From Nannocystaceae bacterium ST9 (GTDB lineage: Bacteria; Myxococcota_A; Polyangia; Nannocystales; Nannocystaceae), in NCBI GenBank assembly GCA_048320885.1, contig JBLWFJ010000001.1, forward strand, positions 1,413,642 through 1,477,641: a stretch of DNA of 64,000 nt, read 5' to 3'. The notes beneath the pieces were generated by a model, which made no database searches, was not told the DNA's origin, and saw nothing but the letters and a program-made list of their open reading frames with translations. Positions 47,062-61,081 of this stretch are shown one piece after another. Both the position numbers and the translations under genes were made by a program. Positions within the stretch are counted from its first letter, which is position 1. The number at the start of each line of letters is the position of its first letter.

Positions 47062-49074
47062 GTGACCCCCATGCCCGATCAACACGCTTCGCACGACGAG
47101 CTCCCGCTCACGCCCACCGGCCGCCTCTCGGACGCCTCGCGCCGGCTGGCCGCGCTCGCCCACGAGCTCGGCCACGACGACCTGGCCACCACGATCACCG
47201 ACGACACCCGCCGCCGACTCGACGACGGTCGCGTGCGCGTGGTCGTGCTCGGCGAGATCAAGCACGGCAAGAGCTCGCTGATCAACGCGCTGCTCGGCGT
47301 GGCGCTGCTGCCGGTCGGGGTCACGCCCACGACCGGGGCCGTGGTCGCGATCCGAGTCGACCCCGATCGCGACGCCGCGCGGACCGGCACCTTCATCCTC
47401 AACCCCGACGGCACCCGCGACGCGCTCGAGCGCGAGCGCTTCGACGCGCTCGCGCGTGGGCGACGGGTCGCGATCGAGCCGGCCGCCAACCAAGGCGAGT
47501 CCGAGCCGATCCACGAGCTCGAGCCGGGCGGCGTGCCCGAGCTGCTCGTCGACGACACCCGCCTGCCGGCGACGGTCGAGCTGATCGACACGCCCGGGTT
47601 CAACGACATCGCCCGGTTCCGGGCGGCGATCAGCCGGGCCGAGCTGCCGCGCGCCGACGTGCTGGTCTTGGTGCTCGACGCCACGCAGGTGCTCAGCCGC
47701 AGCGAGCTCGCGCTGATCCGCGACGCGATCGCGGCGGTCGGTGGGCTGGGCGAGAGCGGTGCGCGCTGCGAGCTGGTCATCAATCGGATCGACCTCGTGC
47801 AAGAAGACGAGCGCCCGCGGATCGTCGCCCACCTGCGCGAGCAGCTGAGCGGCGTGCTGCCGGGCGAGCTCGAGCCCTACACGACCAACGCCAAGCTGGC
47901 CCTGCGCGAGCCCGGCGATCCCTCGCCGGCGGTCCAGGCCGTCGCGGCGCTGCGGGCCAAGCTGTTCGGGCTCGCGGGCGAGGGCAAGCAGATCCTCCCG
48001 GCTCGCGCTCGCTCGGCGATGCTCCGCAACGCTCGCCTGCTCGGCTACAACGCGACCATCCAGGCTCGCGCGCTGCACCTCGAGCGCGAGACGATCGCCG
48101 AAGAGATCCTCGCGGTCGAGCGGGCGATGGGCGATCAGGCCCGCGACCTCGAGCTGCTGCGCAAGCAGATCGACGTCGCCGGCACCCGGATCCGCACGGC
48201 CAGCGAGCAGCGCCAGGCCGCGTTCCGCCGCGAGCTCGAGGAGGCCGCCAAGCTGCAGATCGGCAAGGCCGACCTCCACAACCTGACCCAGGTCGTGCCC
48301 GGGGCGATCCAAGACGCGTTCCTCGAGTTCGTGCACGGCGAGAGCGAGCGGCTGCGCGGCGAGCTCGACGAGCTGACCCGCGAGGTGTTCGCGACCCACG
48401 GCGAGATGGCCCGTCGCCGACTCTTCGAGGCCACCTTGCCGCTCGGGTTTCGCGGGCCCGGGCTCTACGTCGAGCCGCCGGCGATCCTGATCGAGGTCGG
48501 CATGCTCGTGCTCGGCCTGGTCGGCACGATCCTCTGGTACTTCGGCAGCGCGATGACCGGGATGATCATGGCGATCGCCTCGCCGATCACCACGGTGATC
48601 CTGCGCGAGAAGACCGTCCGCGACGCGCGAGAGCAGGCCAAGCGAGTGCTGCCCGAGGCGCTCGACGCCGCGGCGCTCCAGCTCGCCAACGCGGTCGCGC
48701 TGGCGATCGCGACCCACGGGCGGGCGCTCGACGAGCACCTGATGCTGGCCGATCGAGCGCTCGGCGAGCAGCTGGTCGCGAGCCTGCGCACGGCAGCCCG
48801 CCGACTCGACAGCCACGAGGCCAAGCTCGAGGCGATCGCGGCTCGCCGTCCACCCGCGCCTGCGCCCGAAGCCGGCGAGCCGACCCCCGACTCGCAAGCG
48901 CCCACGCTCCCGCCCGAGCTCGCGACCCGGCGCCTGCACGAGCGGGTGGCCGCGGCCGCGCAGGCCGAGCTCGGTCGACTCGAGCATCAGCTCGGCGAGC
49001 TGATCGTCGAGCTCGAGGGGCTGGAGCTCGGCGGCGAGCCGAGCTCGGTCGAGGGCCCCGCGGTGATCCACTGA
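47062..49074 (+). CDS. Bacterial dynamin-like GTPase (BDLP), first of a tandem pair
   Basis: G1 GEIKHGKSSLINALLG and G3 DTPG, with a long coiled-coil/helical stalk and a hydrophobic paddle-like segment (ILIEVGMLVLGLVGTILWYFG). Confidence 0.85.
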   Translation: MTPMPDQHASHDELPLTPTGRLSDASRRLAALAHELGHDDLATTITDDTRRRLDDGRVRVVVLGEIKHGKSSLINALLGVALLPVGVTPTTGAVVAIRVDPDRDAARTGTFILNPDGTRDALERERFDALARGRRVAIEPAANQGESEPIHELEPGGVPELLVDDTRLPATVELIDTPGFNDIARFRAAISRAELPRADVLVLVLDATQVLSRSELALIRDAIAAVGGLGESGARCELVINRIDLVQEDERPRIVAHLREQLSGVLPGELEPYTTNAKLALREPGDPSPAVQAVAALRAKLFGLAGEGKQILPARARSAMLRNARLLGYNATIQARALHLERETIAEEILAVERAMGDQARDLELLRKQIDVAGTRIRTASEQRQAAFRRELEEAAKLQIGKADLHNLTQVVPGAIQDAFLEFVHGESERLRGELDELTREVFATHGEMARRRLFEATLPLGFRGPGLYVEPPAILIEVGMLVLGLVGTILWYFGSAMTGMIMAIASPITTVILREKTVRDAREQAKRVLPEALDAAALQLANAVALAIATHGRALDEHLMLADRALGEQLVASLRTAARRLDSHEAKLEAIAARRPPAPAPEAGEPTPDSQAPTLPPELATRRLHERVAAAAQAELGRLEHQLGELIVELEGLELGGEPSSVEGPAVIH

Positions 49075-49098
49075 CGAACTCGAGAGCGACAGCGCGAC

Positions 49099-52000
49099 AT
49101 GGCCGACGAGCAGGACGACGAGCGCAAGACCAAACCCCTCGAGCAGGCGGGCAAGCGCGCGCGCGCGTGGGCCAAGAACCTCGAGCTGCCGAGCATCGAG
49201 CTGCGCTCGGTCGGCGACGCGCTCGGCGGCTTCGCTCGCAAGGTCCGCGATCTCGCGGTCGAGGTCAGCGAGAGCGTCGGCGTGCCCGAGGTGGTCCGCG
49301 ACGCGGCCGAGCAGTCTCGGGCGCTGCGCCTGGCCGGCGAGTTCGAGCGCGCCAACGAGCTGCTGCGTCCCCTGCTCGACGGCCACGCCGGCGAGCCCAC
49401 GCTGCTGACCGCGCTGCTGCTGACCGCGGTCCACGAGCGGCTGGTCGGCGATCGCCTGCCGAGCAAGCTCGAGATCCTGCGCGAGCACGCCAGTCGACTC
49501 GACCCCAAGAAGCCGCTGCCGGCCATCCATCTGCTCGACGCCGTCGAGGCGCTCGCGACCGACGACCGACCCGACAAGGCCCTCGACGCGCTGCGGCGGG
49601 CGACCCGGGCGATCGACAAGCTCGGCTCGCTCGACCTCGCCGAGGGTCGGCTGCTCGGTCACTTGCTCGCGGCGGCGGCCCACCGGCGGCTCGGCTCGCC
49701 CGATCGATCGATCCGCGAGATTCGCAAGGCCGCGGCCGCGCTGCCGAGCAACGCCGGCCCGGCGCTGCGCCGGATGACGCTGACGCTCGGGGTCGATCAG
49801 CTGCTCGCCGACGGACGGATCGGCGAGGCCGAGCGATGGATCCGATCGGCCCAGCAGCAGCGCGCCGATCGGGCCCAGCCGACGATCGATCCCGACGCCG
49901 AGCCCGACGCGCCCGCGAGCGCGCCCCGACCTTCGCCGCCGCAAGAGCCCAGCGAGCTCGAGCGGGCCCTGCTGGCCCGCGTGTTGGCGGTCCGCGGCGA
50001 GCGAGAGCAGGCGCTCGCGCTGCTGGCCACGCTGCCGCGCGAGGGCGAGCTGTTCGCCGAGGTCCGCGTGCGCGTGCTGATCATGGTCGGGGATCCGAGC
50101 GCCGCGCGAGCCGAGGCGCTGCAACACCTCCAGCGCGACGCGGCCCACCCCGAGCGCCTGCGGCTGTGGGCGCTGGCCGAGCAACGCACGTGGCGAGCCG
50201 GCGGCGGGCCGCCGAGCGGATCGAACGGGCCGGTGATCCAAGCCCTGGTTCGCGCGCTCGAGCTGGCGCCCGCGCACGGCCGCGCCGCCCAGGCACAAGA
50301 GCTCGCCCACGTCGCGCTGCTCGCCGACGATCTCTCCGATCCGGTCCAGCGCGTGCTCGCGGCGGTCCGTCGCGACTTGCGAGACGCGATCGGCGAAGAG
50401 CTGCACCTGCATCGGATCCGCGCGGCGCTGGTCCGGGCCCGCGGCTCGGGCGTGCTCGATCCCGAGGTCGCGGCCGAGTTCGTCGGTCCGCCCTTTCGCC
50501 TGCGTGCCCGGCCCGAGCTGACCGAGGTGCTGGGTCCCGACGAGCTCAGCCCGCTGCGCGATCCCTTGCGCCGCGAGGCGCTGGTCGCCGGTCAGCGCCA
50601 GCTCGCCGCCGCCGAGCGAACCATGCTGGCCGGGCCCGAGCACCTCGACGCGGTCGAGCGAGCGCTGGTCGCCGCGCTGATCGAGGATCCCGAGCTCGGC
50701 GTGGCCCGCCGCAAGTTGGCCGCGCTGACCCGCCCGCGCGCCGGCGAGCGGCTCGAAGACCTGCTCGCCCACGCGACCGAGCTGCTGGCCAAGCTGCCCG
50801 ACGAGCTGCTCGGGGCCTCGCTGCGCCCGGCCGGCGAGGCCCTGCGTCGGGTGATCGCCGCGCGCGAGCGGCTGGCTCGGCCGCTGACGATCGCTATCAT
50901 GGGCGAGTTCTCGGCCGGCAAGAGCACCTTCGTCAACGCGCTGCTCGGCGAGGCCGTCGCGCCGATGGGCGTGCTGCCGACGACCAACACGATCAACGTG
51001 TTTCGCCGCGGCACCGGTCGCGGCGCGCGGGTCCACTATCGCGACGGCAGCATCGCGACGGTCAGCGCGGCCGAGCTCGACGCCTACCTGCGCAACCTCG
51101 ACGACAAGGAGGCCGATCGGATCCGCCACCTCGAGATCGATCGGGTCGGCGAGCGGATGGGCGACGCCGCGGTCGTCGACACGCCCGGCCTCAACGCGCT
51201 CGACGACTACCACGAGAAGGTCGCCCGCGAGTTCATCGAAGAGGCCGACGCGGTGGTCTGGATCTTCTCGGCGACCCAGGGCGGGACCGCGACCGAGGCC
51301 GGGATCCTCCGCGAGCTGCGAGCCGGCGGCCGCAAGGTGCTCGGCGTGCTCAACAAGGTCGACGTGCTCGACTCCGACGACGAGCGGCGCGAGCTGGCCG
51401 ACTACCTGCGCGAGCAGCTGGGCCCCGTGCTGGTCGAGGTGCTGCCGCTCTCGGCCAGCGCCGCGCTCTCGCATCGCTCGGGCAAGATCGCCGGCCCGGA
51501 CCCCTTCGCCCACGTCGACGACGCGCTCGAGCGCCACTTCTTGCAGCACGCCCGCGAGCTCAAGGCCGAGCTGACCAAGCGGCGGCTGAGCGAGGCGCTG
51601 ATCCTGGCCAAGACCACGCTCGAGGCCGCGGTCGCCGAGCTCGAGTCGCGCGGCGCCGACGAGCCGCTCGCCGCCGCGCTGGCCCGCGCCACCGCGGCGC
51701 TCGGCAAGTTCTCCGAGGATCTCCACGAGGCCCTGCTCGGGCTCGACGACGTGCTGACCCGCGAGGCGCTGGCGATCGGGCTGGTCGAGGCCGGCGAGGG
51801 CGTGCGCCGCAAGGTCGATCGCCAGGACGCCGAGTACCTCGAAGCCACGCTCGAGGACGTCGCGCTGCGAGTCCTGCAAGATCGCCTGGCCGCGCTGACC
51901 GGCGAGCACGAGGTGCTGGCCGGCCTGCTGGTCGAGCGCCTGGTCCCCTGGGCGCGCGGCTACCTGGCCGGGCTCTCGGCCCGCGGGTTCGCCAGCGATC

Positions 52001-52248
52001 TGATCTCGACCCACGGACGCGCGGCCACCCGCGGCGAGCAAGCCCTGCGCGACAGCCTGCGCGCGGCCGTGCGACCGCTGGCCGACGACTGGCGACTCGC
52101 GACCCGCGAGCTGTTCCGCGAGCTCGAGCGGGCGCTCGCGCGGGCTCGCCAGCGCTCGAGCAGCGCGCCGCGAGCCGAGGCCCTGCGCCTGCGGACCTCG
52201 GCGCTGGCCGGGATCGAGGGCCTGCTCGCTACGCTCGAGCAGCCCTGA
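49099..52248 (+). CDS. Bacterial dynamin-like GTPase, second of the pair, with a ~560-aa helical N-terminal extension
   Basis: G1 GEFSAGKSTFVNALLG, G3 DTPGLN and NKVD (G4). The giant antisense ORF 46615..52041 is an artefact. Confidence 0.85.
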   Translation: MADEQDDERKTKPLEQAGKRARAWAKNLELPSIELRSVGDALGGFARKVRDLAVEVSESVGVPEVVRDAAEQSRALRLAGEFERANELLRPLLDGHAGEPTLLTALLLTAVHERLVGDRLPSKLEILREHASRLDPKKPLPAIHLLDAVEALATDDRPDKALDALRRATRAIDKLGSLDLAEGRLLGHLLAAAAHRRLGSPDRSIREIRKAAAALPSNAGPALRRMTLTLGVDQLLADGRIGEAERWIRSAQQQRADRAQPTIDPDAEPDAPASAPRPSPPQEPSELERALLARVLAVRGEREQALALLATLPREGELFAEVRVRVLIMVGDPSAARAEALQHLQRDAAHPERLRLWALAEQRTWRAGGGPPSGSNGPVIQALVRALELAPAHGRAAQAQELAHVALLADDLSDPVQRVLAAVRRDLRDAIGEELHLHRIRAALVRARGSGVLDPEVAAEFVGPPFRLRARPELTEVLGPDELSPLRDPLRREALVAGQRQLAAAERTMLAGPEHLDAVERALVAALIEDPELGVARRKLAALTRPRAGERLEDLLAHATELLAKLPDELLGASLRPAGEALRRVIAARERLARPLTIAIMGEFSAGKSTFVNALLGEAVAPMGVLPTTNTINVFRRGTGRGARVHYRDGSIATVSAAELDAYLRNLDDKEADRIRHLEIDRVGERMGDAAVVDTPGLNALDDYHEKVAREFIEEADAVVWIFSATQGGTATEAGILRELRAGGRKVLGVLNKVDVLDSDDERRELADYLREQLGPVLVEVLPLSASAALSHRSGKIAGPDPFAHVDDALERHFLQHARELKAELTKRRLSEALILAKTTLEAAVAELESRGADEPLAAALARATAALGKFSEDLHEALLGLDDVLTREALAIGLVEAGEGVRRKVDRQDAEYLEATLEDVALRVLQDRLAALTGEHEVLAGLLVERLVPWARGYLAGLSARGFASDLISTHGRAATRGEQALRDSLRAAVRPLADDWRLATRELFRELERALARARQRSSSAPRAEALRLRTSALAGIEGLLATLEQP

Positions 52249-52277
52249 GCCGAGCCCGAGGTGATAGCGTGGCGGGC

Positions 52278-52937
52278 ATGAGCGACGACCACGACGAAGA
52301 CATCACCGAAGACGAGCTCGCCGACGCCGTCGGCTCGCCCGGTCGGCGGATGTCGCCGGCGTTGATGGTGTTCGGGCTCGGGCTCTTCGCCTGCGCGGCG
52401 CTGCCCCTGACCCCGAGCGGGACCAGCTTCCTCGGCCTGCTGCTCGCCGCGTTCGGCCGCAGCCCGCTCGAGGGCCTGATGATGGCGCTCGGGTTCGGGG
52501 CGCCGTTCTGGTACGGCTTGGTCGTCGCGATCGGGGCCTGGCCCAAGGGTCCGCTCGGCACCCACGCGCTGCGACAGATCCTGATCAGCAACGCCAGCTT
52601 GCTGCACGGTCAGCTCGCCCTGGTCGCATGGTTGCTGTGGCGCGACGGCCTCGGCGTGCTGCCCTCGGCCCTGCTCGGGTTCGCGGTCGTGAGCGGCGGG
52701 TTCTTCATCGTCCAGCACGCCAGCGCGAGCGCGGCCGAAGGCGGCGTCGACGAGCAGGGCCGCCGACACGAAGGCATGGACCCGCGCTGGCTGATCCGCT
52801 GGACCGCGACCGTGCTGGTCGGCGTGTGCGGCTGGCTGCGCCTGCAGCTGCTCGGCGGCCTCGCGTTCGGCTGGGCCGTCGAAGCCGCGCTGGCCTGCAG
52901 CGTGGCGATCGCCGTCGTGCTCACCCGCCGTCGCTAG
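52278..52937 (+). CDS. Multi-TM membrane protein, function unknown
   Basis: ATG at 52278 (MSDDHDEDITEDE...), followed by six hydrophobic helices. Confidence 0.55.
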   Translation: MSDDHDEDITEDELADAVGSPGRRMSPALMVFGLGLFACAALPLTPSGTSFLGLLLAAFGRSPLEGLMMALGFGAPFWYGLVVAIGAWPKGPLGTHALRQILISNASLLHGQLALVAWLLWRDGLGVLPSALLGFAVVSGGFFIVQHASASAAEGGVDEQGRRHEGMDPRWLIRWTATVLVGVCGWLRLQLLGGLAFGWAVEAALACSVAIAVVLTRRR

Positions 52938-53535
52938 CTATGGGAGGCCGTTCCGCCGGCCTCCCCCGTGCCGGCGGAGCCGTCACGGGTCCTCCTCCTC
53001 GCAAGCGCTGCGCGCCTGTTCGCTTCGCCTTCGCTCGCTCATGTCGCTCGATGCGCTGGCTTTGGAAGACCTGACGATCCCCATCGCGCAGCGAGTGTCC
53101 GCCATCGCGCGACAGCCCACCGAGCGACGGGCCCCCAACGATGACAGCAACGGTTCGCGAACCGTTCGCGAAGTGACGCCACCCCATTCCCGAGTTCGAT
53201 CCGAGCGAGCGAACGCGAGCGAACGCAAAGCGAACGAGCGCGATGTCTGGACGGCCCTCGAGCGAAGGAATGCGCGAGCGAACGCGACGCGAACGAGCGC
53301 GGCGCCTGGAAGGCCTCCGAGCGAAGGAATGAGCGAGCGAACGCGAAGCGAACAGGCCCGAAGGGCCTGCGAGGAGGAGGACCCGTGACGGCTCCGCCGG
53401 CACGGGGGAGGGCGGCGGAACGCCCTCCCTCAAACCAACCAAACAGGCCCGAAGGGCCTGCCAGGAGGAGGACCCGTGACGGCTCCGCCGGCACGGGGGA
53501 GGGCGGCGGAACGCCCTCCCTCAAACCAACCCATC
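52938..53535. repeat. Cluster of GC-rich palindromic repeat elements. Copy A (52938-53042, forward) and copy B (~53328-53430, inverted) flank degenerate ~60-nt gcgaacg-rich tandem units; copy C (53441-53522) is a direct repeat of B
   Basis: RC of A aligns with B nearly base-for-base (atgagcgagcgaa.gcgaagcgaacagg...gaggaggaggacccgtgacggctccgccggcacggggga...). The core hairpin is GGGAGG[G/C]CG-TTCCGC-CG[C/G]CCTCCC. All ORFs across this region are spurious. Confidence 0.8.
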
Positions 53536-53609
53536 GGTGATCCCAAGGTGACAGCAGTGTCGATGACCGTCACGGGGTCGTGCCCGCATATTGACGTCGG
53601 GCCAAGCCG

Positions 53610-54566
53610 ATGCTGTTGCGATTTCCAGAGTCCCCCGACCGGCGGACGTCCACCCCGAGCGAGAGTGGCGACGCCACCGCCGACTTGCCGGTGGTCGAGC
53701 GCGCGCTCCAGGTGCAATTCGTCGGGGGCTTCGAGGGCCTCTCGCTGGTCACGATCGCCTGCGATTCGCAGCCGGCCTGGCTGCTCGAAGAGATCGCCGC
53801 GATCCTCGAGATCACCAGCGACGCCGCGCTCGAGCATCTGGCCGCGCGCTGGCACGACCACTGCCCGAGCGACGCGCTGATCCGGCTCGAGGGTGGAGTC
53901 CGCCGCGAGCTGGTCGACAAGCTCGACCGCGCCCACGTCGTGCTCGCGCGCGGCCGCAAGGCGCTGCTGCTGGTTCGGATGCCGGCGATCGACGAGCTGG
54001 TCGCGCGGCTCGACGTGCCGGCCGCTCGCCGGCTGCGGACTCACCTGCGCGAGCGCGTGGTCCCGGAGTTTCACGCCTGGGAGCGGGCCGCGAGGGCGCT
54101 CGAGCAGCCGCTGCTCTCGGCCGACGCGGTGACGATCGCCGGCAACCGACTCGAGTTCGAACGCCGCTGCTTCGAGGCCGCGGTGCTCGAGCGACTGCTC
54201 GATCGACTCGAGCGTGAGGGCTTGGTCGAGAGCGATCGCCTGGTCGCGTTTCGGGTCGTGGCCAGCGAGCTCGCGCTCGGAGCCCGGCTCGCCGACTTCG
54301 CCGAGTCGCTCGCCCACGGCTGGTCGACGCCCACGCAGATCGCCGAGCGCTGGCACGACACCAGCCCGCTGCGGGTCGGTCGGGTGATCGGCTCGCTCGG
54401 GCTCAAGGGCAGCCGCGCGCACTCGCGGGCGCTGCTCAACAAGGCTCGCGGCCACGACCGGACGGTCGTGTCGCACGTGTACAGCCCGGCCGCGGTCGCG
54501 TTGATCGAACGCGAGCTGCGCAGCCGTGGCCATCGCCGGATCGATCCCGAAGACGCGCTCGCCTGA
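53610..54566 (+). CDS. Bro-N domain (prophage antirepressor-like) protein
   Basis: The N-terminus LQVQFVGGFEGLSLVTIACDSQPAWLLEEIAAILEI fits the Bro-N F..F...iR....g.pWF.a.dva..L pattern. The C-terminal part is helical and uncharacterised. Confidence 0.55.
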   Translation: MLLRFPESPDRRTSTPSESGDATADLPVVERALQVQFVGGFEGLSLVTIACDSQPAWLLEEIAAILEITSDAALEHLAARWHDHCPSDALIRLEGGVRRELVDKLDRAHVVLARGRKALLLVRMPAIDELVARLDVPAARRLRTHLRERVVPEFHAWERAARALEQPLLSADAVTIAGNRLEFERRCFEAAVLERLLDRLEREGLVESDRLVAFRVVASELALGARLADFAESLAHGWSTPTQIAERWHDTSPLRVGRVIGSLGLKGSRAHSRALLNKARGHDRTVVSHVYSPAAVALIERELRSRGHRRIDPEDALA

Positions 54567-54583
54567 GTCGAGCAAGTGGACAC

Positions 54584-55042
54584 ATGATGAGTGGCAAGCA
54601 AAAACGCGTTCGCGTGCGCTTCTCGGTCGACGACGACGAGCAAGCCAGCAAGATCACCGCGCTGCTCGAGGCGCTCGGCTACGATCCGGTCCGCGACCTC
54701 GAGCAGGGCTCGCCGGTCTCGCGGCTGCGCTGGGCGGTCGCGCGGCTGTCCAACCAGGCCCACCTGACCGAGCGCGAGCGCGACATCCTCGATCGCGTGC
54801 TGCAAGGCTCGAGCAACCACGACATCGGCGAGCTGCTCGGGATCAGCCGGGCGACGGTGAAGTGGCACATGCACAACATCTTCACCAAGACCGGCTCGCG
54901 CACGCGCGAGGCCCTGCTGCGCGACGCGCTGCAGCTGCGCACGACTCCGGTGCTCGAGCTGGTCGAGGACGAGCCCGAGGCCGGCGACGCCGACCTCGAC
55001 GCCGGCCTCGACCAGGTCGAGCCCGATCTCGACGACGAGTGA
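54584..55042 (+). CDS. LuxR-family HTH transcriptional regulator with an acidic C-terminal tail
   Basis: LTERERDILDRVLQGSSNHDIGELLGISRATVKWHMHNIFTKTG is a canonical GerE/LuxR HTH. Confidence 0.75.
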   Translation: MMSGKQKRVRVRFSVDDDEQASKITALLEALGYDPVRDLEQGSPVSRLRWAVARLSNQAHLTERERDILDRVLQGSSNHDIGELLGISRATVKWHMHNIFTKTGSRTREALLRDALQLRTTPVLELVEDEPEAGDADLDAGLDQVEPDLDDE

Positions 55043-55090
55043 CTCGAGTCGACCCCGCCCGCGCCGCGACTCTGCATGTCCCGACCGGCC

Positions 55091-55267
55091 TCACTTCCTC
55101 GGCGCGAGCCCGGTCGGGACGAAGGGCCCCGGACAGACTTCGGTCTCGGGATCGCAGGGGTTGGGGTTGAACAGGTCACAGGCGGGCAGCAGCGCGGTGA
55201 AGGCCAGCAGGGCGGCCATGACCAGACTCTTGCTCGCGCCACCGAGATTCCATCGATTGTCTCGCAT
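55091..55267 (-). CDS. Small lipoprotein (58 aa), not called as a separate ORF in the track
   Basis: MRDNRWNLGGASKSLVMAALLAFTALLPACDLFNPNPCDPETEVCPGPFVPTGLAPRK has a positive n-region, a hydrophobic core and an LLPAC lipobox. It lies inside the 3' end of the spurious ORF 55091..57052, downstream of dnaB. Confidence 0.4.
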   Translation of the reverse strand: MRDNRWNLGGASKSLVMAALLAFTALLPACDLFNPNPCDPETEVCPGPFVPTGLAPRK

Positions 55268-55398
55268 CGCCACTGAGACCCACGCTCGCGCGGCCGCGGT
55301 TTCGAGATCGATCGTGAGCAGCCCCGAGCGACGATCGGGGATCGAAGGGGAATGCGAACGAGGCAGGAATGTCGGCTGCGCTGCGCCTACGCGTGGCG

Positions 55399-56862
55399 TC
55401 AGAAGTCGCCACCGCCACCACCGGCGTAGTCGGGCGCCGGGTTTTCGAATCGCGTGTGTCGCTTGATGAAGTTGAGGTTCACGGTCCCGATCGGGCCGTT
55501 GCGCTGCTTGCCGATGATGATCTCGGCCTTGTTCTCGACCTCGCGGACCTTCTCTTCCGGCGAGTCGGCCGGCAGATAGCGCTCCTCGCGATAGATGAAC
55601 ATGATCACGTCGGCGTCCTGCTCGATCGCCCCGGACTCGCGCAAGTCCGAGAGCTGCGGGCGATGATCGGCGCGCGAGTCGACGGCGCGGTTGAGCTGCG
55701 AGAGCGCGACGACCGGGACCTTGAGCTCCTTGGCCATCGCCTTGAGCCCGCGGCTGATCTCCGAGATCTCCTGCTCGCGCGAGTCGTAGCGGGCCTTGCC
55801 GCCGCGCGCGAGCTGAAGGTAGTCGACCATGATCAGGCCCAGCTGCTTGTGGTTGGCGGTCGGATCGTCGGGGTCGGGATCGGGGAAGATGGTTCGATCG
55901 TCGCGCCAGCGACGAGAGCGAGCGCGCAGCTCGAGGATGCTCGGCGCGGCGGTGTCGTCGATGTAGAGCGGCGCGTTCGAGATCCGATCGGCGGCCGCGA
56001 TCAGCCCGCGGAAGTCCTGCTCCATCATTCGCCCGCCGCGACGCAGCAGCGAGTAGTCGACCCGCGCCTCGCTGCACAGCACGCGCTCGACCAGCTGGGT
56101 CGCGCCCATCTCGAGCGAGAAGAAGAGCACCGGGAAGCGAGCCGGCCGCTGCTCGGGCGGCGCGTTGGCGAACTTCTGGGGCAGGATGCAGGCGTTCTGG
56201 GCGATGTTGAGCGCGAACGCGGTCTTGCCCATCGAGGGCCGGGCCGCGAGGATGACCAGGTCGCCGGGCTGCAGGCCCGCGGTCATCTCGTCGAGCTGGT
56301 AGAAGCCGGTCGACACGCCGGTGATCGGATCGGTCTGGCGCTGGCGCTCGGTGATGCCCTGGAACACCTCGAGCATCAGCTCGCGCGACGATCGGTAGGT
56401 GCTCTTGCGCCCGCGCTCGTTGACCTTGAGCACCCGCTGCTCGGCCGTGTCGACGTAGGCCCGGGGATCCTCGACCTCGCTCATGCCCTCCTCCGCGATC
56501 TCGCGGGTGACGACGACGAGGTTGCGGATCTGGGCGGCCTCGAGGATCAGCTCGGCGTGGGCCTTGATGTTGTGCGCGGTCGCGTAGCGATCGAGGCGAG
56601 CCAGGCCCTCGATCCCGCCGACCAACTCGAGCTCGCCCGTCCGCCGGAGCTGGGCCTCGAGCGTGATCACGTCGATCGGTTCGCCGCGCTCCTCGAGCAC
56701 GCGCATCGCTCGGAACGTGGCTTGGTAGGCCGGGACGTAGAAGTCGTCCTCGCCGATCAGCTCGAGCACTTCGCCGAGCGCATCGCGGCCGCGCAGCATG
56801 ACCCCGCCGAGCACGGCGGCTTCGGCTTCCTTGCGGTGGGGGAGCGTGCGAGGTTCGGCCAT
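55399..56862 (-). CDS. dnaB: Replicative DNA helicase DnaB
   Basis: N-terminal DnaB domain (EAEAAVLGGVML...). Walker A ARPSMGKTAFALNIAQN, Walker B LIMVDYLQL and the SQLNR arginine finger region. Start ATG 56862 or 56883. Confidence 0.9.
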   Translation of the reverse strand: MAEPRTLPHRKEAEAAVLGGVMLRGRDALGEVLELIGEDDFYVPAYQATFRAMRVLEERGEPIDVITLEAQLRRTGELELVGGIEGLARLDRYATAHNIKAHAELILEAAQIRNLVVVTREIAEEGMSEVEDPRAYVDTAEQRVLKVNERGRKSTYRSSRELMLEVFQGITERQRQTDPITGVSTGFYQLDEMTAGLQPGDLVILAARPSMGKTAFALNIAQNACILPQKFANAPPEQRPARFPVLFFSLEMGATQLVERVLCSEARVDYSLLRRGGRMMEQDFRGLIAAADRISNAPLYIDDTAAPSILELRARSRRWRDDRTIFPDPDPDDPTANHKQLGLIMVDYLQLARGGKARYDSREQEISEISRGLKAMAKELKVPVVALSQLNRAVDSRADHRPQLSDLRESGAIEQDADVIMFIYREERYLPADSPEEKVREVENKAEIIIGKQRNGPIGTVNLNFIKRHTRFENPAPDYAGGGGGDF

Positions 56863-57050
56863 CGGTCCCGGGCGGGGGGACACGGTGCCCCGACGCGCGG
56901 GCCGGGGGCAAGCCGCCCGCCGGCGCTTGTCTGGCCCAGATCATCGAATTGCGGCGCCCGCGATTCCCGCATGGCTCGGTTTTGCGACATGCACGCACTG
57001 GCGGCGCCGGCGATGGGCGCCGACCCCCGCCCGTGATAGGTTCACGCCGC

Positions 57051-58085
57051 ATGGCGCGGGTGCCCGAGAAGATCGGCCATTACGAGGTCAAGGGTCTGCT
57101 CGGCAAAGGGGCGATGGGTGAGGTGTACGAGGGCCTCGACCCCAGCCTCAACCGCCGCGTCGCGCTGAAGGTCCTCGGTCGCAAGCACCAGGAGTCGACC
57201 GAGTTCAAGAACCGCTTCCTCCGCGAGGGCCGAGCGCTGGCGGCGATGAACCACAACAACGTGGTTCAGGTGTACTTCATCGGCGAGTTCGAGGGCCGGC
57301 CCTTCCTGGCCATGGAGTTCCTCGACGGCGACGACATCGGCGGGCTGATCAAGAAGAACGGCCCGCTCTACCCCGGCGACGCGGCCGAGGTCGTGCGGCA
57401 GGCCGCGGTCGGGCTGCTCGAGGCCAAGCGGGTCGGCGTGGTCCACCGCGACGTCAAGCCATCGAACCTGGTCGTGACCAAGACCGGCGAGGTCAAGGTC
57501 ACCGACTTCGGCCTGGCCAAGGCGCTGCAAGAAGACCTGTCGATCACCGCGACCGGCGTGTTCGTCGGCACGCCCGACTACCTCGCGCCCGAGCAGGCGA
57601 TGGGCGAAGAGGTCGACTCGAGCGCCGACGTCTACGCGCTCGGTTGCTCGCTCTACCACATGTGCACGGGCAGCCCGCCCTTCCGCAAGGGCGGCAGCGA
57701 CGACCACTACACCGCCGTCGTCCGCCGTCACCTCAAGGCCGAGCGCCCGGTCCTCAAGCAGCAGATCCCGACCTTCGACGAGCCGCTCAGCGATCTGTGC
57801 CGACGCATGATGAGCCGCCGGCCCGACGTCCGGCCCACGCTCGAAGAGCTGATCGACTGCCTGCCCGAGATCTCCTCGCGACTCGGCGGTCGGATCCCCC
57901 CGCGCCACGCCGCCGTCGAGCTGATCTCGTCGCCGCCGCCCAACCCGGCCGAGCCGGCGCCCTCGAAGTCGGAGCCCGAGAAGCCCGAGAACCCGCTCGG
58001 CGGACGGACGCTCGCGATCGCGATCGGCGTGGGGATCGCGATCGGGGTCGTCGGCTCGTTGCTGGTCATGCTGTTGGCTAATTAG
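57051..58085 (+). CDS. Ser/Thr protein kinase with a C-terminal TM anchor
   Basis: Kinase motifs GKGAMGEVYEG, ALKVL, HRDVKPSN, DFG and APE. C-terminal helix LAIAIGVGIAIGVVGSLLVMLLAN. The upstream part of ORF 56949.. is junk. Confidence 0.85.
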   Translation: MARVPEKIGHYEVKGLLGKGAMGEVYEGLDPSLNRRVALKVLGRKHQESTEFKNRFLREGRALAAMNHNNVVQVYFIGEFEGRPFLAMEFLDGDDIGGLIKKNGPLYPGDAAEVVRQAAVGLLEAKRVGVVHRDVKPSNLVVTKTGEVKVTDFGLAKALQEDLSITATGVFVGTPDYLAPEQAMGEEVDSSADVYALGCSLYHMCTGSPPFRKGGSDDHYTAVVRRHLKAERPVLKQQIPTFDEPLSDLCRRMMSRRPDVRPTLEELIDCLPEISSRLGGRIPPRHAAVELISSPPPNPAEPAPSKSEPEKPENPLGGRTLAIAIGVGIAIGVVGSLLVMLLAN

Positions 58086-58260
58086 TCATAGGGAGGGCGT
58101 TCCGCCGCCCTCCCCCGCTTCGCGGGGCCCCCTCCTCACTGCCCTAGCGGGCCGCTCACTCCGGTTCGCGGTCGGTTGCGGGCGTCTCCTTGCTGCCGCT
58201 CACTCTGGTTCGTGGTCAAGCGCGTCCTCGCTGAATTCTGGAGGCGCTCGCGGGCCGCGG
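58086..58260. repeat. Dispersed copy (D) of the palindromic repeat-element family, immediately 3' of the kinase stop codon
   Basis: The stretch ggagggcgttccgccgccctcccccgcttcgcggggccccctcctcactgccct..cgggccgctcactccggttcgcggtcggttgcgg is about 100 nt near-identical to copy E at 60950. Confidence 0.8.
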
Positions 58261-58291
58261 ACGATCGGCGTGGCGTGATAGCTTCGCGGGC

Positions 58292-59134
58292 GTGAGCGGC
58301 TTCGATCCCAATTGGCATCCCGAGGGGGCCGTGTGTGCCAAGGCGCTGCGCGAGCGGTTGCCTGGGCTCGCGCCGGTCGACTGGCTGATCATCGGTGGCT
58401 CGGGCATCGGGCGGCCGCTGGTCGAGCAGGGCGAGCATGGGCTCGGGCTTCGCGTGCTGCATTCGGTCGCGCTGGCCGAGCTCGGGTTGCCGGCGCCGAG
58501 CGTGCCGGGGCACGGCAGCGCGCTGGTGATCGGCGAGCTCGATCGCGAGGGCGGCGGGGCGCCGATCCGCGTGGCGGTGCAGACCGGGCGCATCCATCCT
58601 TACGAGGGGCACTCGGTCGGCCTGGTCTGCGCGCCGCTCGGGGCGATGTTCGAGGTCGGGGTCGGTCGCGTGCTGCTGACGGCGGCGGTCGGCGGGGTCG
58701 ATCCCATGCTGCGCGTCGGGGCGATCGTCAGCTTCCGCGATCAGATGGCCCTCTTCGCTCCGACGCCGCTGCGTGGGGCGGCGTTCGTCGACTGCTCGAA
58801 CCTCTACGATCGCGAGCTTCGCAAGGCGCTGCGCCAGCAGGCCGGCGATCCCTCGATCCTGCCCGAGGTCGTGTACGGCCACGCTCGCGGCCCGCAGTAC
58901 GAGAGCCCGGCCGAGGTCGCGGCGCTGCGCCTGCTCGGCGCCGACGTGGTCGGGATGTCGACGACCTACGAGGCGATCCTGGCCGCGGCCCATCGCGTGC
59001 CCTGCTGTGGGCTCGGCGTGGTCACCAACGCGGCCGGCAGCGAGGCGCTCTCGCACGTCGAGGTCGAGCGCGAGTCGATCAAGGCGCGCGGGCGCCTGGT
59101 CGCGATCCTCCGCAAGCTGATCCAGAGCGCGTGA
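58292..59134 (+). CDS. Purine nucleoside phosphorylase family protein (PunA/MtnP-type)
   Basis: GTG start. The phosphate-binding N-terminus (LIIGGSGIG) and the C-terminal VVTNAAG signature are typical of the PNP/MTAP family. Confidence 0.75.
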   Translation: MSGFDPNWHPEGAVCAKALRERLPGLAPVDWLIIGGSGIGRPLVEQGEHGLGLRVLHSVALAELGLPAPSVPGHGSALVIGELDREGGGAPIRVAVQTGRIHPYEGHSVGLVCAPLGAMFEVGVGRVLLTAAVGGVDPMLRVGAIVSFRDQMALFAPTPLRGAAFVDCSNLYDRELRKALRQQAGDPSILPEVVYGHARGPQYESPAEVAALRLLGADVVGMSTTYEAILAAAHRVPCCGLGVVTNAAGSEALSHVEVERESIKARGRLVAILRKLIQSA

Positions 59135-59904
59135 TGGGCGACCTCGGCAAGACCACTCGAACCGCGTTGATCACCGGAGCCTCGAGCGGGATCGGGGCCG
59201 CGCTCGCGCGAGCGCTCGCTCGCCAGGGCATCGAGGTGGTGATCGCGGCTCGCCGCGAGGCCGCGCTGCGCGAGCTCGCCTCCACGATCGAGGCCGAGGG
59301 CGGCAAGGCCCGCGTGCTCGCGCTCGACGTCCGCGAGCCCGAAGCGACGGTCGAGGCGATCCAGGCGATCGACGCAGAGCTCGGTGGACTCGATCTGGTC
59401 GTCGCCAACGCGGGCGTCGGTCAGCAGCGCTGGGCCGGCAAGCTCGACTGGCAGGCGTGCAGCCAGGTCATCGACGTCAACGTGCGGGGTGCCGTCGCCA
59501 CCTTGGTCGCGGTGCTGCCGAAGATGGTCGAGCGCGGCCGCGGGCGATTGGTCGGGATCTCGAGCGTCGCGCAGTACCGCGGCCTGCCCAAGAACGCGGC
59601 CTACAGCGCGAGCAAGGCGTTCCTCAGCACCTTCCTCGAGAGCCTGCGCGTCGACCTGCGCCGGACCGGCGTCAGCGTGACCGACGTGCGCCCAGGCTTC
59701 GTCGACACGCCGCTGAGCGCCGCGGTCCCGCGCAAGCCCTTCGAGATCGACGCCGACGCGGCCGCCCGCCTGATCGTCGACGCGGTCGATCGTCGCCGTC
59801 GCGTGCTGGTGTTCCCGCTGCCGATGCGGATGTTGGGGGCGCTGCTGACCGTGATGCCGGCCGCGATCTACGAGCCGATCGTCGGCGGCGCGACCAAAAA
59901 GTAG
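59134..59904 (+). CDS. SDR-family short-chain dehydrogenase/reductase
   Basis: TGASSGIG cofactor motif, NAG, and the YSASK catalytic tetrad. The ATG overlaps the upstream stop. Confidence 0.85.
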   Translation: MGDLGKTTRTALITGASSGIGAALARALARQGIEVVIAARREAALRELASTIEAEGGKARVLALDVREPEATVEAIQAIDAELGGLDLVVANAGVGQQRWAGKLDWQACSQVIDVNVRGAVATLVAVLPKMVERGRGRLVGISSVAQYRGLPKNAAYSASKAFLSTFLESLRVDLRRTGVSVTDVRPGFVDTPLSAAVPRKPFEIDADAAARLIVDAVDRRRRVLVFPLPMRMLGALLTVMPAAIYEPIVGGATKK

Positions 59905-60063
59905 GTGGGGATCGCGCCGGCCCGCCTGCGAGGCCTGCGAGTTCTCTCCTGACGACGCGAGAATTCACTGCTTGCCCGGTTCGGCGGCGCTGGCTATAAC
60001 GTGCACGAGCGTTGAAAACGACTTTCAATGCTTCCTCCAGGTCCGCCGTCCCCGAGAGTCTGC

Positions 60064-60258
60064 ATGCTCGTCTGCCTCTGCAAGGGTGTCTCCGACCGCC
60101 GCATCACCGAAGAGATCCGCCGTGGCGCCTGCACGCTGCAAGCGATCCAAGACGGCTGCCAGGCGGGCACGGACTGCAAGAGCTGTGTTCGGCAGATCCG
60201 TCAGATGCTCGCCGGCCAGGGCCACGCTCGCCAGGACGCCGGCGATCTCGGCGGCTGA
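60064..60258 (+). CDS. bfd: Bacterioferritin-associated ferredoxin (BFD-like [2Fe-2S] domain)
   Basis: MLVCLCKGVSDRRITEEIRRGACTLQAIQDGCQAGTDCKSC carries the C.C...C..C arrangement and lies directly upstream of bfr. Confidence 0.7.
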   Translation: MLVCLCKGVSDRRITEEIRRGACTLQAIQDGCQAGTDCKSCVRQIRQMLAGQGHARQDAGDLGG

Positions 60259-60417
60259 GCCCGCTGGCGCTGGATGAAAGCGACTTTCATCCCCGCGCCG
60301 ACTCGGGCCGAAGCTCGCGAGGCGCCCGCGAGTTGAAAGTGGCAGTCGGCTTCGTTGCGCCGACCCATCGTCACGCAGCGATTGCAGCCGCAGCGTCGCT
60401 TGCCTAGGGTGAGCGCG

Positions 60418-60888
60418 ATGAAGGGCAAGCCAGAGATCATCGATCTGCTCAACGAGGTACTGACCGCGGAGCTCACCGCCATCAATCAGTACTTCATCCA
60501 CGCCAAGATGCTGCAGAACTGGGGCCTGCTGCGTCTCGCGGGCAAGGTCCGCGCCGAGTCGATCGACGAAATGAAGCACGCCGACGCACTGATCGAGCGC
60601 ATCTTGTATCTGGAGGGCATCCCCAACCTCCAGCGGCTCGGCAAGGTCAACGTCGGCGAGACGCCCAAGGAGCAGCTCCAGCTCGACTTGGCCGTCGAGC
60701 ACGAGGCGCTCGCTCGCTTCAATCGCGGCGTCGCGCTCTGCCGCGACCTCGGTGACAACGGCAGCCGCGAGCTGCTCGAGCGAATGCTGATCTCCGAAGA
60801 GGAGCACACCGATTGGCTCGAGACTCAGCTCGACTTGATCGCTCGGCTCGGCGAGGTCCAGTACCTCGCGCAGCAGCTCGGAGGTTGA
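60418..60888 (+). CDS. bfr: Bacterioferritin
   Basis: [36 protein letters not shown]... is the canonical Bfr N-terminus, including the haem-ligand Met region. Confidence 0.9.
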
Positions 60889-60899
60889 GCAGACCCTCC

Positions 60900-61075
60900 G
60901 CGAACGAGCGAGCGAACGCGATCGCGGACAGCCCGAAGCGGTTTTATGGAGGGCGTTCCGCCGCCCTCCCCCGCTTCGCGGGGCCCCCTCCTCACTGCCC
61001 TCTCGGGCCGCTCACTCCGGTTCGCGGTCGGTTGCGGAGGTCTCTGAATTTCTGGAGGGGGTTCCGCCCTCGCTA
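60900..61075. repeat. Dispersed copy (E) of the palindromic repeat-element family, immediately 3' of the bfr stop
   Basis: Contains both the gagcgagcgaacgcga end-motif and the GGAGGGCG-TTCCGC-CGCCCTCC hairpin module. Confidence 0.8.
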
Positions 61076-61081
61076 GCGTTC

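Follow-up and report, generated by a model that had tools for sequence, protein, structure and literature searches.

The repeat cluster and its neighbouring genes

The 64,000-nucleotide stretch of DNA analysed here (the window), from Nannocystaceae bacterium ST9, carries a cluster of GC-rich repeats at 52938-53535, lodged in a 672-bp spacer between two genes (Table 1). The codon-position GC signal is absent across 52938-53600, and this stretch is therefore non-coding. The upstream gene is the last after two dynamin-like GTPase genes, and its present stop codon TAG (52935-52937) comes from copy A of the repeat; its ortholog in the related locus L033 is four codons longer and ends in TGA. The downstream gene had been labelled Bro-N antirepressor-like in the initial annotation, a label that is not established, the Bro-N match of its 318-aa product (E = 0.24) scoring 12.5 bits against a cut-off of 25.6. 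A PHROGs search with both flanking proteins and an exact look-up of the downstream protein in the contig index returned no match, and a prophage or antirepressor context was rejected, given the absence of phage genes and the sub-threshold Bro-N score.

Within the cluster the order is copy A on the forward strand, box repeats, and copies B and C on the reverse strand. The arms of a 101-nt inverted repeat (52942-53042 and 53329-53429, 93% complementary, 286 nt between them) bear out the earlier description of A and B as near-exact reverse complements, the coordinates first given being nearly exact. The tandem relation of copy C to copy B likewise stands: a 91-nt unit occurs at 53346-53436 and again at 53437-53527 with 97% identity, TRF reports 2.0 copies at 98% over 53351-53531, and the two copies are 97-99% identical overall. 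A 33-nt core occurs exactly three times, against an expectation of zero. CRISPR was rejected, as it had been in the initial annotation, since the inverted and tandem units have no spacers and the window holds no cas genes.

The DNA between the inverted arms had been described as about 285 bp holding three sub-repeats of about 60 nt. The period is real (59 nt by TRF, at 53214-53353, 87%), but there are only 2.4 copies of this gcgaacg-rich repeat, two of them complete and the third an incomplete one that forms the start of copy B. Of the 286-nt interior, repeat makes up only about 150 nt, the other 135 nt or so (53066-53200) being ordinary ancestral spacer. Nor are the 59-nt units separate internal repeats: they belong to the B element as its box-plus-spacer module, which occurs in tandem in other genomes too (loci L002, L007, L014 and L025). 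TRF also reports periods of 10, 11 and 15 at 53205-53305, where GCGAAC-type motifs recur every 10-11 bp.

Table 1. Genes, repeat units and other features of the window discussed in the text (columns: feature, coordinates, strand, remarks)
Upstream gene, ~220 aa, no Pfam family	52269-52937	+	Codon-phase GC signal runs to 52937
Copy A, full type-1 unit	52935-53065	+	CM match 118 bits, model positions 1-113; ends +/-3 nt
Copy A modules, 5' part	HP3 52942-52965; HP2 52965-52989	+	Begins with TAG + CTAT
Copy A modules, 3' part	TCCTCCTCCTC 52990-53000; HP1 53002-53018; TTCGC box 53019-53042; tail 53043-53065	+	
Remnant of ancestral spacer	53066-53200	.	Matches the plain 144-nt spacer of L033 in short collinear pieces
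Old in-frame stop TGA, followed by GATCCCCATCG	53072-53074 (TGA)		Inside the ancestral spacer remnant
Palindrome AACGGTTCGCGAACCGTT	53149-53172		In the ancestral spacer remnant; TRF period 11
Tandem box-plus-spacer module of the B element	53203-53353	-	TRF score 217, 59-nt period, 2.4 copies
Last box of the 59-nt tandem	53329-53352	-	Same as the box of copy B
Copy B, full type-1 unit	53329-53443	-	CM match 121 bits, positions 1-113
Copy B modules, first part	Box 53329-53352; HP1 53353-53369; GAGGAGGAGGA 53371-53381	-	
Copy B modules, second part	HP2 53382-53406; HP3 53406-53429; T-rich linker 53430-53443	-	
Copy C, box-less 91-nt unit in tandem with B	53444-53534	-	CM 83 bits, positions 23-113, filters off
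Copy C modules	HP1 53444-53460; HP2 53473-53497; HP3 53497-53520	-	Terminal TCAAACCAACCCAT
Conserved region 5' of downstream gene	53535-53609	+	90% identical to L033; outside the repeat; right edge of the insertion
Downstream gene, 318 aa	53610-54566	+	Only a sub-threshold Bro-N hint
Type-2 family member	58082-58275	+	194 nt in the window vs 1 nt in L033
Type-2 member modules, first part	HP3 58091-58114	+	TTAG-TCATAG; HP3; CCCGC-TTCG-GCGGG hairpin
Type-2 member modules, second part		+	CCCCCTCCTCACTG; CCC-TAGC-GGG hairpin; two CCGCTCACTCYGGTTCGYGGTC boxes
Third insertion site	60885-61045	+	Reverse box fragment 60899-60921, then type-2 unit, HP3 60947-60970
Decayed solo HP3-like hairpin GGAGGGGGTTCCGCCCTC	61046-61066	.	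Between convergent genes

A dispersed family with three conserved hairpins

The most constant element of the unit is the hairpin HP3, GGGAGGGCG-TTCCGC-CGCCCTCCC, with a 9-bp stem and a 6-nt loop. Its pattern has five matches in the window, where 0.14 are expected, and two of these lie outside the A-C cluster. In the genome collection it was found at 32 loci or more, at least 28 of which come from two Nannocystaceae/'Myxococcales' metagenome-assembled genomes and Paraliomyxa miuraensis; many of the loci listed fall at contig ends, and one further variant of the family was seen in a metagenome. The exact 33-mer of the HP2/HP3 junction has no match in the genome collection, which suggests that the A-C subfamily is rare, and outside the window the HP2 variant of copies A-C was found only on one metagenome contig. 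A scan of viral contigs for HP3 and a blastn comparison of the whole cluster with plasmids and phages gave no match. Rfam returned nothing at gathering score over the window and nothing at E <= 1 over 52500-61500, and ARAGORN found no tRNA or tmRNA in the cluster region; the unit is thus neither unique to the window nor derived from a tRNA, an rRNA or a known RNA family. In the searchable literature on repeats of Nannocystis, Enhygromyxa and Myxococcus, and on REP, RAYT and MITE elements, we found no description of the family.

Oriented extraction and an alignment of 22 units reveal a shared module plan. The unit starts with a T-rich end, often (C/T)TAG-TCTTTT, followed by the near-invariant HP3, HP2, a CCCCCTCCTC tract (CCTCC) and HP1, and closes with either a T-rich linker, which leads into the next unit, or a TTCGC-rich box and a spacer of about 30 nt, a module that may in turn occur in several copies. 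HP3 and the box are much better conserved than the hairpin between them: the sequence of HP2 is swapped between subfamilies, whereas that of HP3 is invariant across genera. Also conserved are an ATG at the end of the box and a single-stranded tract between hairpins that is SD-like or anti-SD-like. The four bases 5' of HP3 vary, being GTAG in L018, ATAG in L028, L031 and at window position 58087, TTAG in L032, TATG in copy A, and TTTG or TTTT in most other copies. All family copies that were assessed are non-coding, and mosaics resembling the window cluster occur in L002, L007, L012, L016, L025 and L028.

A model with these three hairpins is 94-97% paired across the copies and contains eight pairs changed on both sides, a level of pairing and compensation reached by none of 500 shuffles, with slid controls at 29-50%; RNAalifold, the folding check bearing on the hairpin first proposed, recovers the same hairpins de novo. 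Compensated changes support all three of them, and none of the seven differences between A and B breaks a pair. The G:C to C:G swap previously noted in the core hairpin is confirmed: copy A reads GGGAGGC...GCCTCCC, copies B and C GGGAGGG...CCCTCCC, and HP1 contains a second compensated pair. The swap had been taken to suggest selection on the secondary structure. The compensated changes do keep the hairpins, but in a DNA palindrome compensation can also come from template switching from one arm to the other, and selection on RNA structure is therefore unproven. A strand call from G.U pairs was rejected because each orientation has one wobble-only position, which amounts to no strand preference. 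In the orientation that the copies favour with respect to genes, HP1 contains an A.C mismatch.

Filled sites, empty sites and gene ends

The window and L033, whose DnaB proteins are 96% identical, are collinear at 82-89% identity. The collinearity breaks at 52931-53534, 58082-58275 and 60885-61081, three repeat-bearing segments that are empty in L033, with synteny resuming at 53535 after the first; one more gap between BLAST blocks (54940-55406) lies between a GerE-type gene and dnaB. The earlier idea of an insertion hot spot for a structured, GC-rich dispersed repeat is supported. At the first site, compared through local matches, and at the second, the element was inserted 0-3 codons before the old stop, and each brought a new TAG. 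The second element separates the last sense codon of a Ser/Thr kinase gene from the stop that this gene had before (TGATAG, 58276-58281), and the kinase frame now ends at the TAG that the element brought (58083-58085); the true start of the gene that follows it is the GTG at 58292. The third site measures 197 nt in the window against 38 nt in L033, and the decayed hairpin next to it is orthologous to an intact solo hairpin in L033, GGGAGGGCG-GAA-CGCCCTCCC. In the syntenic DNA of four relatives, about 100 kb in all, no family copy was found.

Polymorphism extends to strain level. The Enhygromyxa contigs L041 and L042, 99.4-99.7% identical, differ only by a 157-nt related element and a duplicated ATG. 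This fresh insert in L041 has only 101 of its 157 nt in common with another copy, its ends of 27 and 29 nt being private to it, and at its start 11 nt of the target flank are repeated in inverted form; template switching accounts for this better than transposition of the cut-and-paste or copy-out kind. Together with its flank the insert forms an 11-bp hairpin plus a T-run (TTTT) directly at the stop codon of a kinase gene. The near-palindromic junction at the second window site points the same way as the inverted flank copy, towards template-switched or flank-guided copying. Two other contig pairs considered as strain-level indels (L036/L037 and L043/L044) were discarded, as they show only scaffold gaps in unrelated short tandem repeats.

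The initial annotation had compared the layout to a MITE-like transposition hot spot, but the strict definition of a MITE does not apply to single units that have neither terminal inverted repeats nor a consistent target-site duplication. Terminal inverted repeats are absent from the well-embedded single units (L006, L014, L018, the second window site and L041). The search for target-site duplications gave inconsistent results among the sites compared: ATG (3 bp) in L041/L042, TAG or T(C/G)ATAG, which is ambiguous, at the second window site, and none seen at the first. CTAG stands on both sides of the unit in three loci. The empty allele of the first site has no TAG at the insertion point, and at the second site the TAG is new relative to AAC|TGATAG. 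No transposase was found in the window, and a tblastn search of 440 kb with E. coli RayT, which has low power, returned nothing.

The copies, placed by a local codon-phase test, favour the 3' ends of genes. The end of HP3 lies 2-59 nt after the stop codon of a co-directional gene in 20 of the 25 assessable copies, and the surrounding genes are convergent in nine cases, tandem in eight and divergent in one. TAG is enriched beside HP3 (8/16 versus a background of 23%, p = 0.016). Read in the favoured orientation, the units hold many pyrimidines and few A residues: (T-A)/(T+A) is 0.5-0.67, and C >= G. Where tandem genes make the orientation informative, the bias amounts to no more than about 8 to 3. 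On the reverse strand, which is the forward orientation of the family, a consensus terminator is scored at 53442-53462, where HP1 of copy C is joined by TGGTTGGTTT in the T-rich B-C linker. We found no other terminator at the units and no promoter-like site within the unit; the T-run of HP3 precedes its stem rather than following it.

Relationship to known repeats, origin and significance

The repeat is thus a dispersed multi-copy family with presence/absence polymorphism, including a new insertion at strain level, with conserved hairpins and with a preference for the 3' ends of genes. It is a REP/BIME-like mosaic mobile repeat, lineage-specific and previously undescribed, and it represents a familiar kind of bacterial repeat, not a new type of system. 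As with the REPs and BIMEs (bacterial interspersed mosaic elements) of Enterobacteria and Pseudomonas, its units are short, GC-rich palindromes that are repeated many times outside coding sequence and follow the ends of genes or lie between convergent ones; they form mosaic clusters with other motifs, in both orientations and in tandem; and they are non-coding, lack terminal inverted repeats, have a hairpin with compensated changes and break assemblies at contig ends. The initial comparison to a nested REP array accordingly holds for the palindromes and mosaic clusters but not for the nesting, the elements being separate insertions. Unlike REPs, the family shows no sequence similarity to them, has three hairpins in fixed order over about 91-130 nt in place of one 35-nt palindrome, and carries at its end a stop codon that is found within the last codons of genes. 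The GTAG-type tetranucleotide at the foot of the REP palindrome is the cleavage site of RAYT, the Y1/HUH transposase that mobilizes REPIN doublets and whose gene is flanked by its REPs; here the corresponding tetranucleotide is variable (GTAG once) in place of the fixed GTAG, and no RAYT gene was found in the 440 kb searched at low power.

Other classes share some of these traits. MITEs such as Correia/NEMIS of Neisseria, ERIC and Nezha are likewise small, non-coding, multi-copy, structured and strain-polymorphic, insert near genes and can bring terminator-like structures, but differ in their terminal inverted repeats and consistent target-site duplications; we know of no full-length insertion sequence related to the present family. 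The BOX elements of Streptococcus pneumoniae (boxA-boxB(n)-boxC) are modular, intergenic and predicted to fold stably, with an internal module of varying copy number, but their sequence, modules and host are unrelated, and to our knowledge they have not been reported to replace stop codons. The IS200/IS605-derived PATEs also lack terminal inverted repeats, have hairpins near their ends, show an orientation bias and may parallel the family in a fixed short end motif, here (C/T)TAG. In contrast to PATEs, which insert without duplication 3' of a fixed tetra- or pentanucleotide already present in the target, the one clean new insertion (L041) has a 3-bp duplication, the TAG of the first two window sites is apparently borne by the element and not pre-existing in the target, and neither TnpA nor TnpB lies nearby. 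Rickettsia palindromic elements too are structured repeats that land, and are tolerated, inside open reading frames, but those are translated in frame within proteins, whereas the present elements end the frame at once with their own TAG at its extreme 3' end.

We consider it probable that the region is an insertion hot spot filled by this lineage-specific family of small, non-coding, non-autonomous repeats of Nannocystaceae, which are marine myxobacteria. Copy A would have entered the upstream gene within its last codons, and now supplies its stop; a second element, facing the other way, would have landed farther into the spacer and then undergone local duplication of some of its parts, the 91-nt unit to two copies and the 59-nt box-plus-spacer module to 2.4. 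Two insertions followed by local duplication would produce the appearance of inverted copies flanking tandem units. The elements may be copied in trans by an enzyme recognizing HP3, through single-strand chemistry of the REP/RAYT or IS200/IS605 kind, or alternatively by template switching during replication. Once placed with HP3 beside a stop codon, they could work as 3'-end structures of transcripts that bring about termination or protect the mRNA, a role that would account for the orientation bias.

The last possibility may be turned around, such that the units are primarily selected cis-acting modules of transcript ends (terminators, intrinsic or Rho-dependent, or RNA stabilizers) that spread occasionally by recombination or template switching, without dedicated transposition. 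This proposal, which we regard as unlikely, accommodates the placement of HP3 shortly past co-directional stops, with only one copy in a divergent promoter region, the composition of the favoured strand, the consensus terminator of copy C, the hairpin and T-run that the L041 insert creates, the invariance of HP3 across genera and the solo HP3-like hairpin between convergent genes in L033. However, copies B and C point against both flanking genes, none of the hairpins in solitary units is followed by a U-tract, close relatives function without elements at all three sites, and function leaves the near-identity of many copies and their pile-up at contig ends unexplained; in any case such a role is compatible with mobility and not opposed to it. 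It appears improbable that the family represents an unrecognized superfamily of mobile 'gene-end cassettes' that lack terminal inverted repeats and would target a few nucleotides around stop/start junctions, bring their own stop and terminator-like hairpins and be copied by template switching or under guidance of the flank, as hinted by the 11-nt inverted flank copy in L041 and by the sharing of only the 101-nt core.

The geometry of the cluster could also be read as one composite MITE- or REPIN-like doublet, extending from 52938 to about 53436 and moved as a whole, with copy C as a later end duplication. REPINs in other bacteria are inverted REP doublets, the 101-nt inverted repeat has its HP3 ends facing outward, and in L028 a unit is followed by a degenerate inverted HP3. 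Such an origin is nevertheless very improbable: the interior at 53066-53200 is collinear with the plain spacer of the relative, including the old stop TGA and TCCCCATCG, the units at 28 family loci compared are solitary or in direct tandem rather than inverted pairs, in distinction from REPINs, copy A alone explains the gene-end replacement, and no duplication flanks the A...B span. What the initial annotation saw as one nested element with inverted copies bracketing repeats thus resolves into copy A and a B/C array, separate tail-to-tail insertions with the old spacer between them. Just as remote is a role of the arrays as DNA-level platforms for a chromosomal protein, with phased GCGAAC boxes and the invariant HP3 as putative recognition sites. 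BIMEs, which the mosaic modules resemble, bind gyrase and IHF in E. coli, and the 10-11 bp period and the conservation of HP3 and box over the intervening hairpin would agree with this, but close relatives lack the elements in their syntenic regions, and we know of no protein partner for HP3/box arrays. A small RNA, riboregulator or short peptide is extremely unlikely as a product of the unit. The conserved ATGAGCGAGCGAACG... in the reverse orientation, or an exposed GAGGAGG/CCUCCUC tract acting on ribosome-binding sites, could provide a route, in line with the conserved structure, the SD-like or anti-SD-like tract and the ATG at the box end. Against it stand the empty Rfam search, the lack of a promoter-like site and the equivalence of the two strands in wobble pairs; a small ORF was rejected outright, there being no codon-phase signal and the HP2 length variants breaking the frame.

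The repeats of large myxobacterial genomes have been poorly charted. The family described here breaks assemblies of Nannocystaceae genomes because its copies pile up at contig ends, and it provides strain-level markers. It also shifts the annotated ends and starts of genes, as in the window, where the stop codons of two genes were replaced and the start call of a third was misled, and it shows in a clean natural case how structured repeats land precisely at operon junctions. Should the units prove to terminate or stabilize transcripts, portable 3'-end parts for high-GC hosts could be drawn from them. The copying of hairpin repeats without terminal inverted repeats is only partly explained, even for REP/BIME elements, and the L041/L042 pair, an insertion caught in the act, could reveal how it takes place.

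The three-hairpin unit and its arrangement

Folding, suggested by the initial annotation for its core hairpin, yields three successive hairpins (HP3, HP2 and HP1; z = -3.2 to -4.0) in each of the copies A, B and C that occupy the 672-bp spacer after the ~220-aa gene (site 1). The geometry first proposed for this spacer is largely recovered by repeat finders: A and B form an inverted repeat (arms 52942-53042 and 53329-53429, 101 nt, 93% complementary, 286 nt apart), C follows B as a direct tandem repeat (53346-53436 and 53437-53527, 91 nt, 97%), and the degenerate sub-repeats between A and B have a 59-nt period (53214-53353, 2.4 copies, 87%), representing additional copies of the box plus spacer of copy B. 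Three exact occurrences of a 33-nt core contrast with an expectation of none. The codon-position GC signal, strong in both neighboring genes, is absent over 52938-53600; the G+C content of the window is 69%. A palindrome in the ancestral part of the spacer (AACGGTTCGCGAACCGTT, 53149-53172), reported by TRF as an 11-nt tandem and partly kept in the relative L033, carries a GTTCGC/GCGAAC motif, as does the box of the element.

Coordinates of the unit's modules (read in copy A orientation) and of associated features
Feature	Position	Remarks
T-rich end with TAG	5' of HP3	First module
HP3	52942-52965	GGGAGG(G/C)CG-TTCCGC-CG(C/G)CCTCCC
HP2	52965-52989	Copy A
TCCTCCTCCTC	52990-53000	Copy A, between HP2 and HP1
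HP1	53002-53018	Copy A
TTCGC box	53019-53042	Copy A; 3' end CTCGCTCAT
Tail	After box	Copy A; ~23 nt
Copy B	53329-53443	Same unit as A, opposite strand
Copy C	53444-53534	Lacks box; joined to B by T-rich linker; 83 bits in unfiltered covariance model scoring
Two adjacent dynamin-like GTPase genes	Within 47062-52937	670 and 1049 aa
~220-aa protein	After dynamin-like pair, up to 52937	No family
318-aa protein	Downstream of site 1	Sub-threshold Bro-N hint
177-aa protein	60355-60888	Position corresponds to L033 ferritin gene (PF00210)
Other neighbors		GerE-type regulator, DnaB, Ser/Thr kinase, nucleoside phosphorylase, short-chain dehydrogenase
L041 insert	4787-4943 (L041)	Versus L042 4871-4873

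None of the seven differences between A and B breaks a pair: four constitute two compensated pairs (the G:C to C:G swap already noticed in the core hairpin and a second in another hairpin), one upgrades A.C to G-C, one lies in a loop and one in the box. In an alignment of 22 units, scored on the three-hairpin model against 500 shuffles and slid controls, pairing reaches 93.6% or 97.0% depending on orientation, with one wobble-only position in each, so that the strand cannot be called. These values were reached by none of the 500 shuffles, and slid controls gave 29-50%; RNAalifold recovers the three hairpins unaided. Eight pairs are altered on both sides, the double changes in HP2 mostly separating two or three subfamilies and hence reflecting few independent events. 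Arm-to-arm template switching in DNA palindromes can yield compensated changes without selection on RNA. Of the proposed selection on structure, hairpin maintenance with compensated changes stands, but these changes do not prove selection at the RNA level.

Filled and empty sites in related genomes

The neighborhood is ordinary chromosome, with no transposase, integrase, phage or, as had been anticipated, cas genes. The dynamin-like genes are a typical bacterial pair, and their order with the ~220-aa gene is conserved in L033, a 244-kb metagenome contig that is the closest syntenic relative (DnaB 96% identical, versus 88-89% for Pseudenhygromyxa and Enhygromyxa). These identities place the window in a marine myxobacterium of the Nannocystaceae. 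The downstream gene described as Bro-N antirepressor-like is present, whereas its Bro-N match is sub-threshold (E = 0.24). The 75 nt before its ATG (53535-53609) are 90% identical to L033 though intergenic, and likely represent a promoter or operator region spared by the insertions. Elsewhere in the window, a 'tRNA-???' with a 2-nt anticodon called by ARAGORN at 26500-26597, inside a long coding ORF (24003-27797), is almost certainly a false positive.

L033 is collinear with the window over 46-64 kb at 82-89% identity, and the alignment breaks at 52931-53534 (604 versus 144 nt), 58082-58275 (194 versus 1) and 60885-61081 (197 versus 38) coincide with the three repeat-bearing segments (sites 1 to 3); one more BLAST-block gap (54940-55406) lies between the GerE-type gene and dnaB. 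The syntenic DNA of four relatives, ~100 kb in all, contains no copy of the family. At site 1 the L033 gene extends four more codons, ending TGA-TCCCCATCG, whereas the window reads ...CGTCGC followed by copy A with its TAG, the old ...ACC-TGA-(C)GATCCCCATCG being retained at 53068-53086. Additional short matches in collinear order place the plain L033 spacer at 53066-53200, indicating that A and the B/C array entered an older spacer separately and lie in it tail to tail. The initial annotation's nested cluster, with inverted copies bracketing internal repeats, is therefore not supported as one element, while the hot spot that it envisaged is supported. The best reading is a hot spot with at least two insertions followed by local tandem duplication. 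A composite inverted-repeat element would account for the complementary arms, but given the ancestral spacer between them we regard it as very improbable.

At site 2, L033 reads AAC-TGATAG-GGTCGCCGCC-GTG, i.e. the kinase stop, 13 nt and the phosphorylase start. In the window the element sits between the last sense codon of the kinase and the old TGATAG, and its TAG has become the stop codon of the kinase. The conserved phosphorylase start is GTG 58292; the mechanical ORF start, 58235, falls within the insertion and would probably be mis-called as the start by annotation pipelines. Among relatives (58086-58291; L033-L044) this junction is hypervariable, measuring 5, 7, 13, 78, 90, 167 or 206 nt, and harbors insertions of independent origin as well as other short tandem repeats (e.g. 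CCCGACTAT three times in L043). The site is a repeatedly used hot spot and probably an operon junction. At site 3, L033 (6127-6145) has a solo HP3-like hairpin, GGGAGGGCG-GAA-CGCCCTCCC, where a ferritin-family gene (PF00210) and an HTH gene converge; a decayed version of this hairpin, its loop apparently in the opposite orientation, lies beside the insertion in the window (61046-61066).

The near-identical Enhygromyxa contigs L041 and L042 (99.4-99.7% over 11 kb) differ by a sole indel of 157 nt plus a duplicated ATG, again at the kinase-phosphorylase junction. The insert obeys the grammar of the family (CTGGTTTTGATAG, hairpin, hairpin, GGCCCCTCACCCCCTG, hairpin, TTGGTTG...). Elsewhere on L041, 7 nt past another gene's stop, lies a further copy that is 80% identical to it over the central 101 nt, with compensated differences and the outer stem of HP3 in its first hairpin. 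The insert begins with 9 private nucleotides and then an 11-nt perfect inverted copy of the left target flank; flank and insert jointly form a terminator-like hairpin followed by a T-run.

Family membership and position relative to genes

The unit is dispersed, as first suspected, rather than unique to the window: HP3 recurs exactly at 58091-58114 and 60947-60970, each time opening a type-2 element with the same grammar and different HP2, HP1 and box sequences, and, in the collection of species-representative genomes, a degenerate HP3 pattern matches at least 32 loci. Among the matches listed, 28 of 32 belong to Paraliomyxa miuraensis and two MAGs, one assigned to Nannocystaceae and one to 'Myxococcales'; many are <100 nt from contig ends, as expected of an assembly-breaking repeat. 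Oriented extraction reveals a constant module order across loci, with at least three unrelated hairpins in the HP2 position; box-plus-spacer tandem repeats like those of site 1, and tandem units connected through the same T-rich linker as B and C, also recur elsewhere. Copies A-C carry a rare HP2 variant, which is matched exactly nowhere in the genome collection and twice in metagenomes. One of these matches is a genuine family member in which HP3 shows another compensated change; the second is an identical 25-nt hairpin (CCCGTGACGGCTCCGCCGGCACGGG, L039 448-472) on an unrelated contig of 57% GC, with no other module of the unit around it. Units of the 'Myxococcales' SOY_6_C MAG (L029, L005, L008, L009) are accompanied by an extra repeat, a palindrome of ~36 nt (..AGTCGC.TTGATTG...CAATCAATGCGACT..) with a T-run after it, which in L029 (1560-1640 and 1400-1445) flanks the unit on both sides. 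Rfam and the plasmid, phage and viral contig collections yielded no family matches, and the searchable literature no description of the family.

Of 25 assessable copies, 20 have their HP3 end 2-59 nt past a co-directional gene's stop codon; contexts are convergent (9), tandem co-directional (8), tandem reversed (4, including B and C) and divergent (1). TAG accounts for 8 of 16 stops before HP3, versus a 23% background (p = 0.016), and for 6 of 8 within 7 nt of it. In three genomes TAGTC(T/A)T forms the left end, implying that the TAG travels with the element. The strand in the favored orientation is rich in pyrimidines and poor in A.

Nature of the family

The repeats are dispersed, polymorphic and recently inserted, maintain their hairpins and prefer gene ends. 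We consider it probable that they constitute a lineage-specific, non-autonomous, mosaic family of REP/BIME-like repeats, which might be mobilized in trans, by recognition of a hairpin or by template switching, and may secondarily serve as 3'-end structures of transcripts. That they are purely functional terminator cassettes, which would fit the gene-end preference and is compatible with this reading, we deem unlikely. The sole consensus terminator found is HP1 with the T-rich linker. A protein-binding platform is as improbable as the composite element, and an sRNA or peptide gene, in a spacer devoid of codon-position signal, is scarcely credible.

REP/BIME sequences offer the closest likeness in how the family works. 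The tetranucleotide 5' of HP3 is variable here, and a low-power tblastn search of 440 kb with E. coli RayT gave no hit, so that the family is at most a candidate for the RAYT-associated class. The MITE-like nature initially suggested falls short of the strict definition, terminal inverted repeats being absent from well-embedded units. Duplication of the target varies, with ATG in the L041/L042 pair and CTAG on both sides of three well-embedded units. Nor do the insertions show the IS200/IS605-type pattern, in which the target motif exists beforehand and no duplication arises. The flank-derived inverted copy in the L041 insert keeps open a more novel copying mechanism.

The feature is thus real and largely as first guessed: a new family or variant of bacterial structured intergenic repeats, ordinary in kind. 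What is unusual about it is the stop codon borne by the element, a middle hairpin that is exchanged while the first stays invariant, and the fresh insertion that copied its flank.
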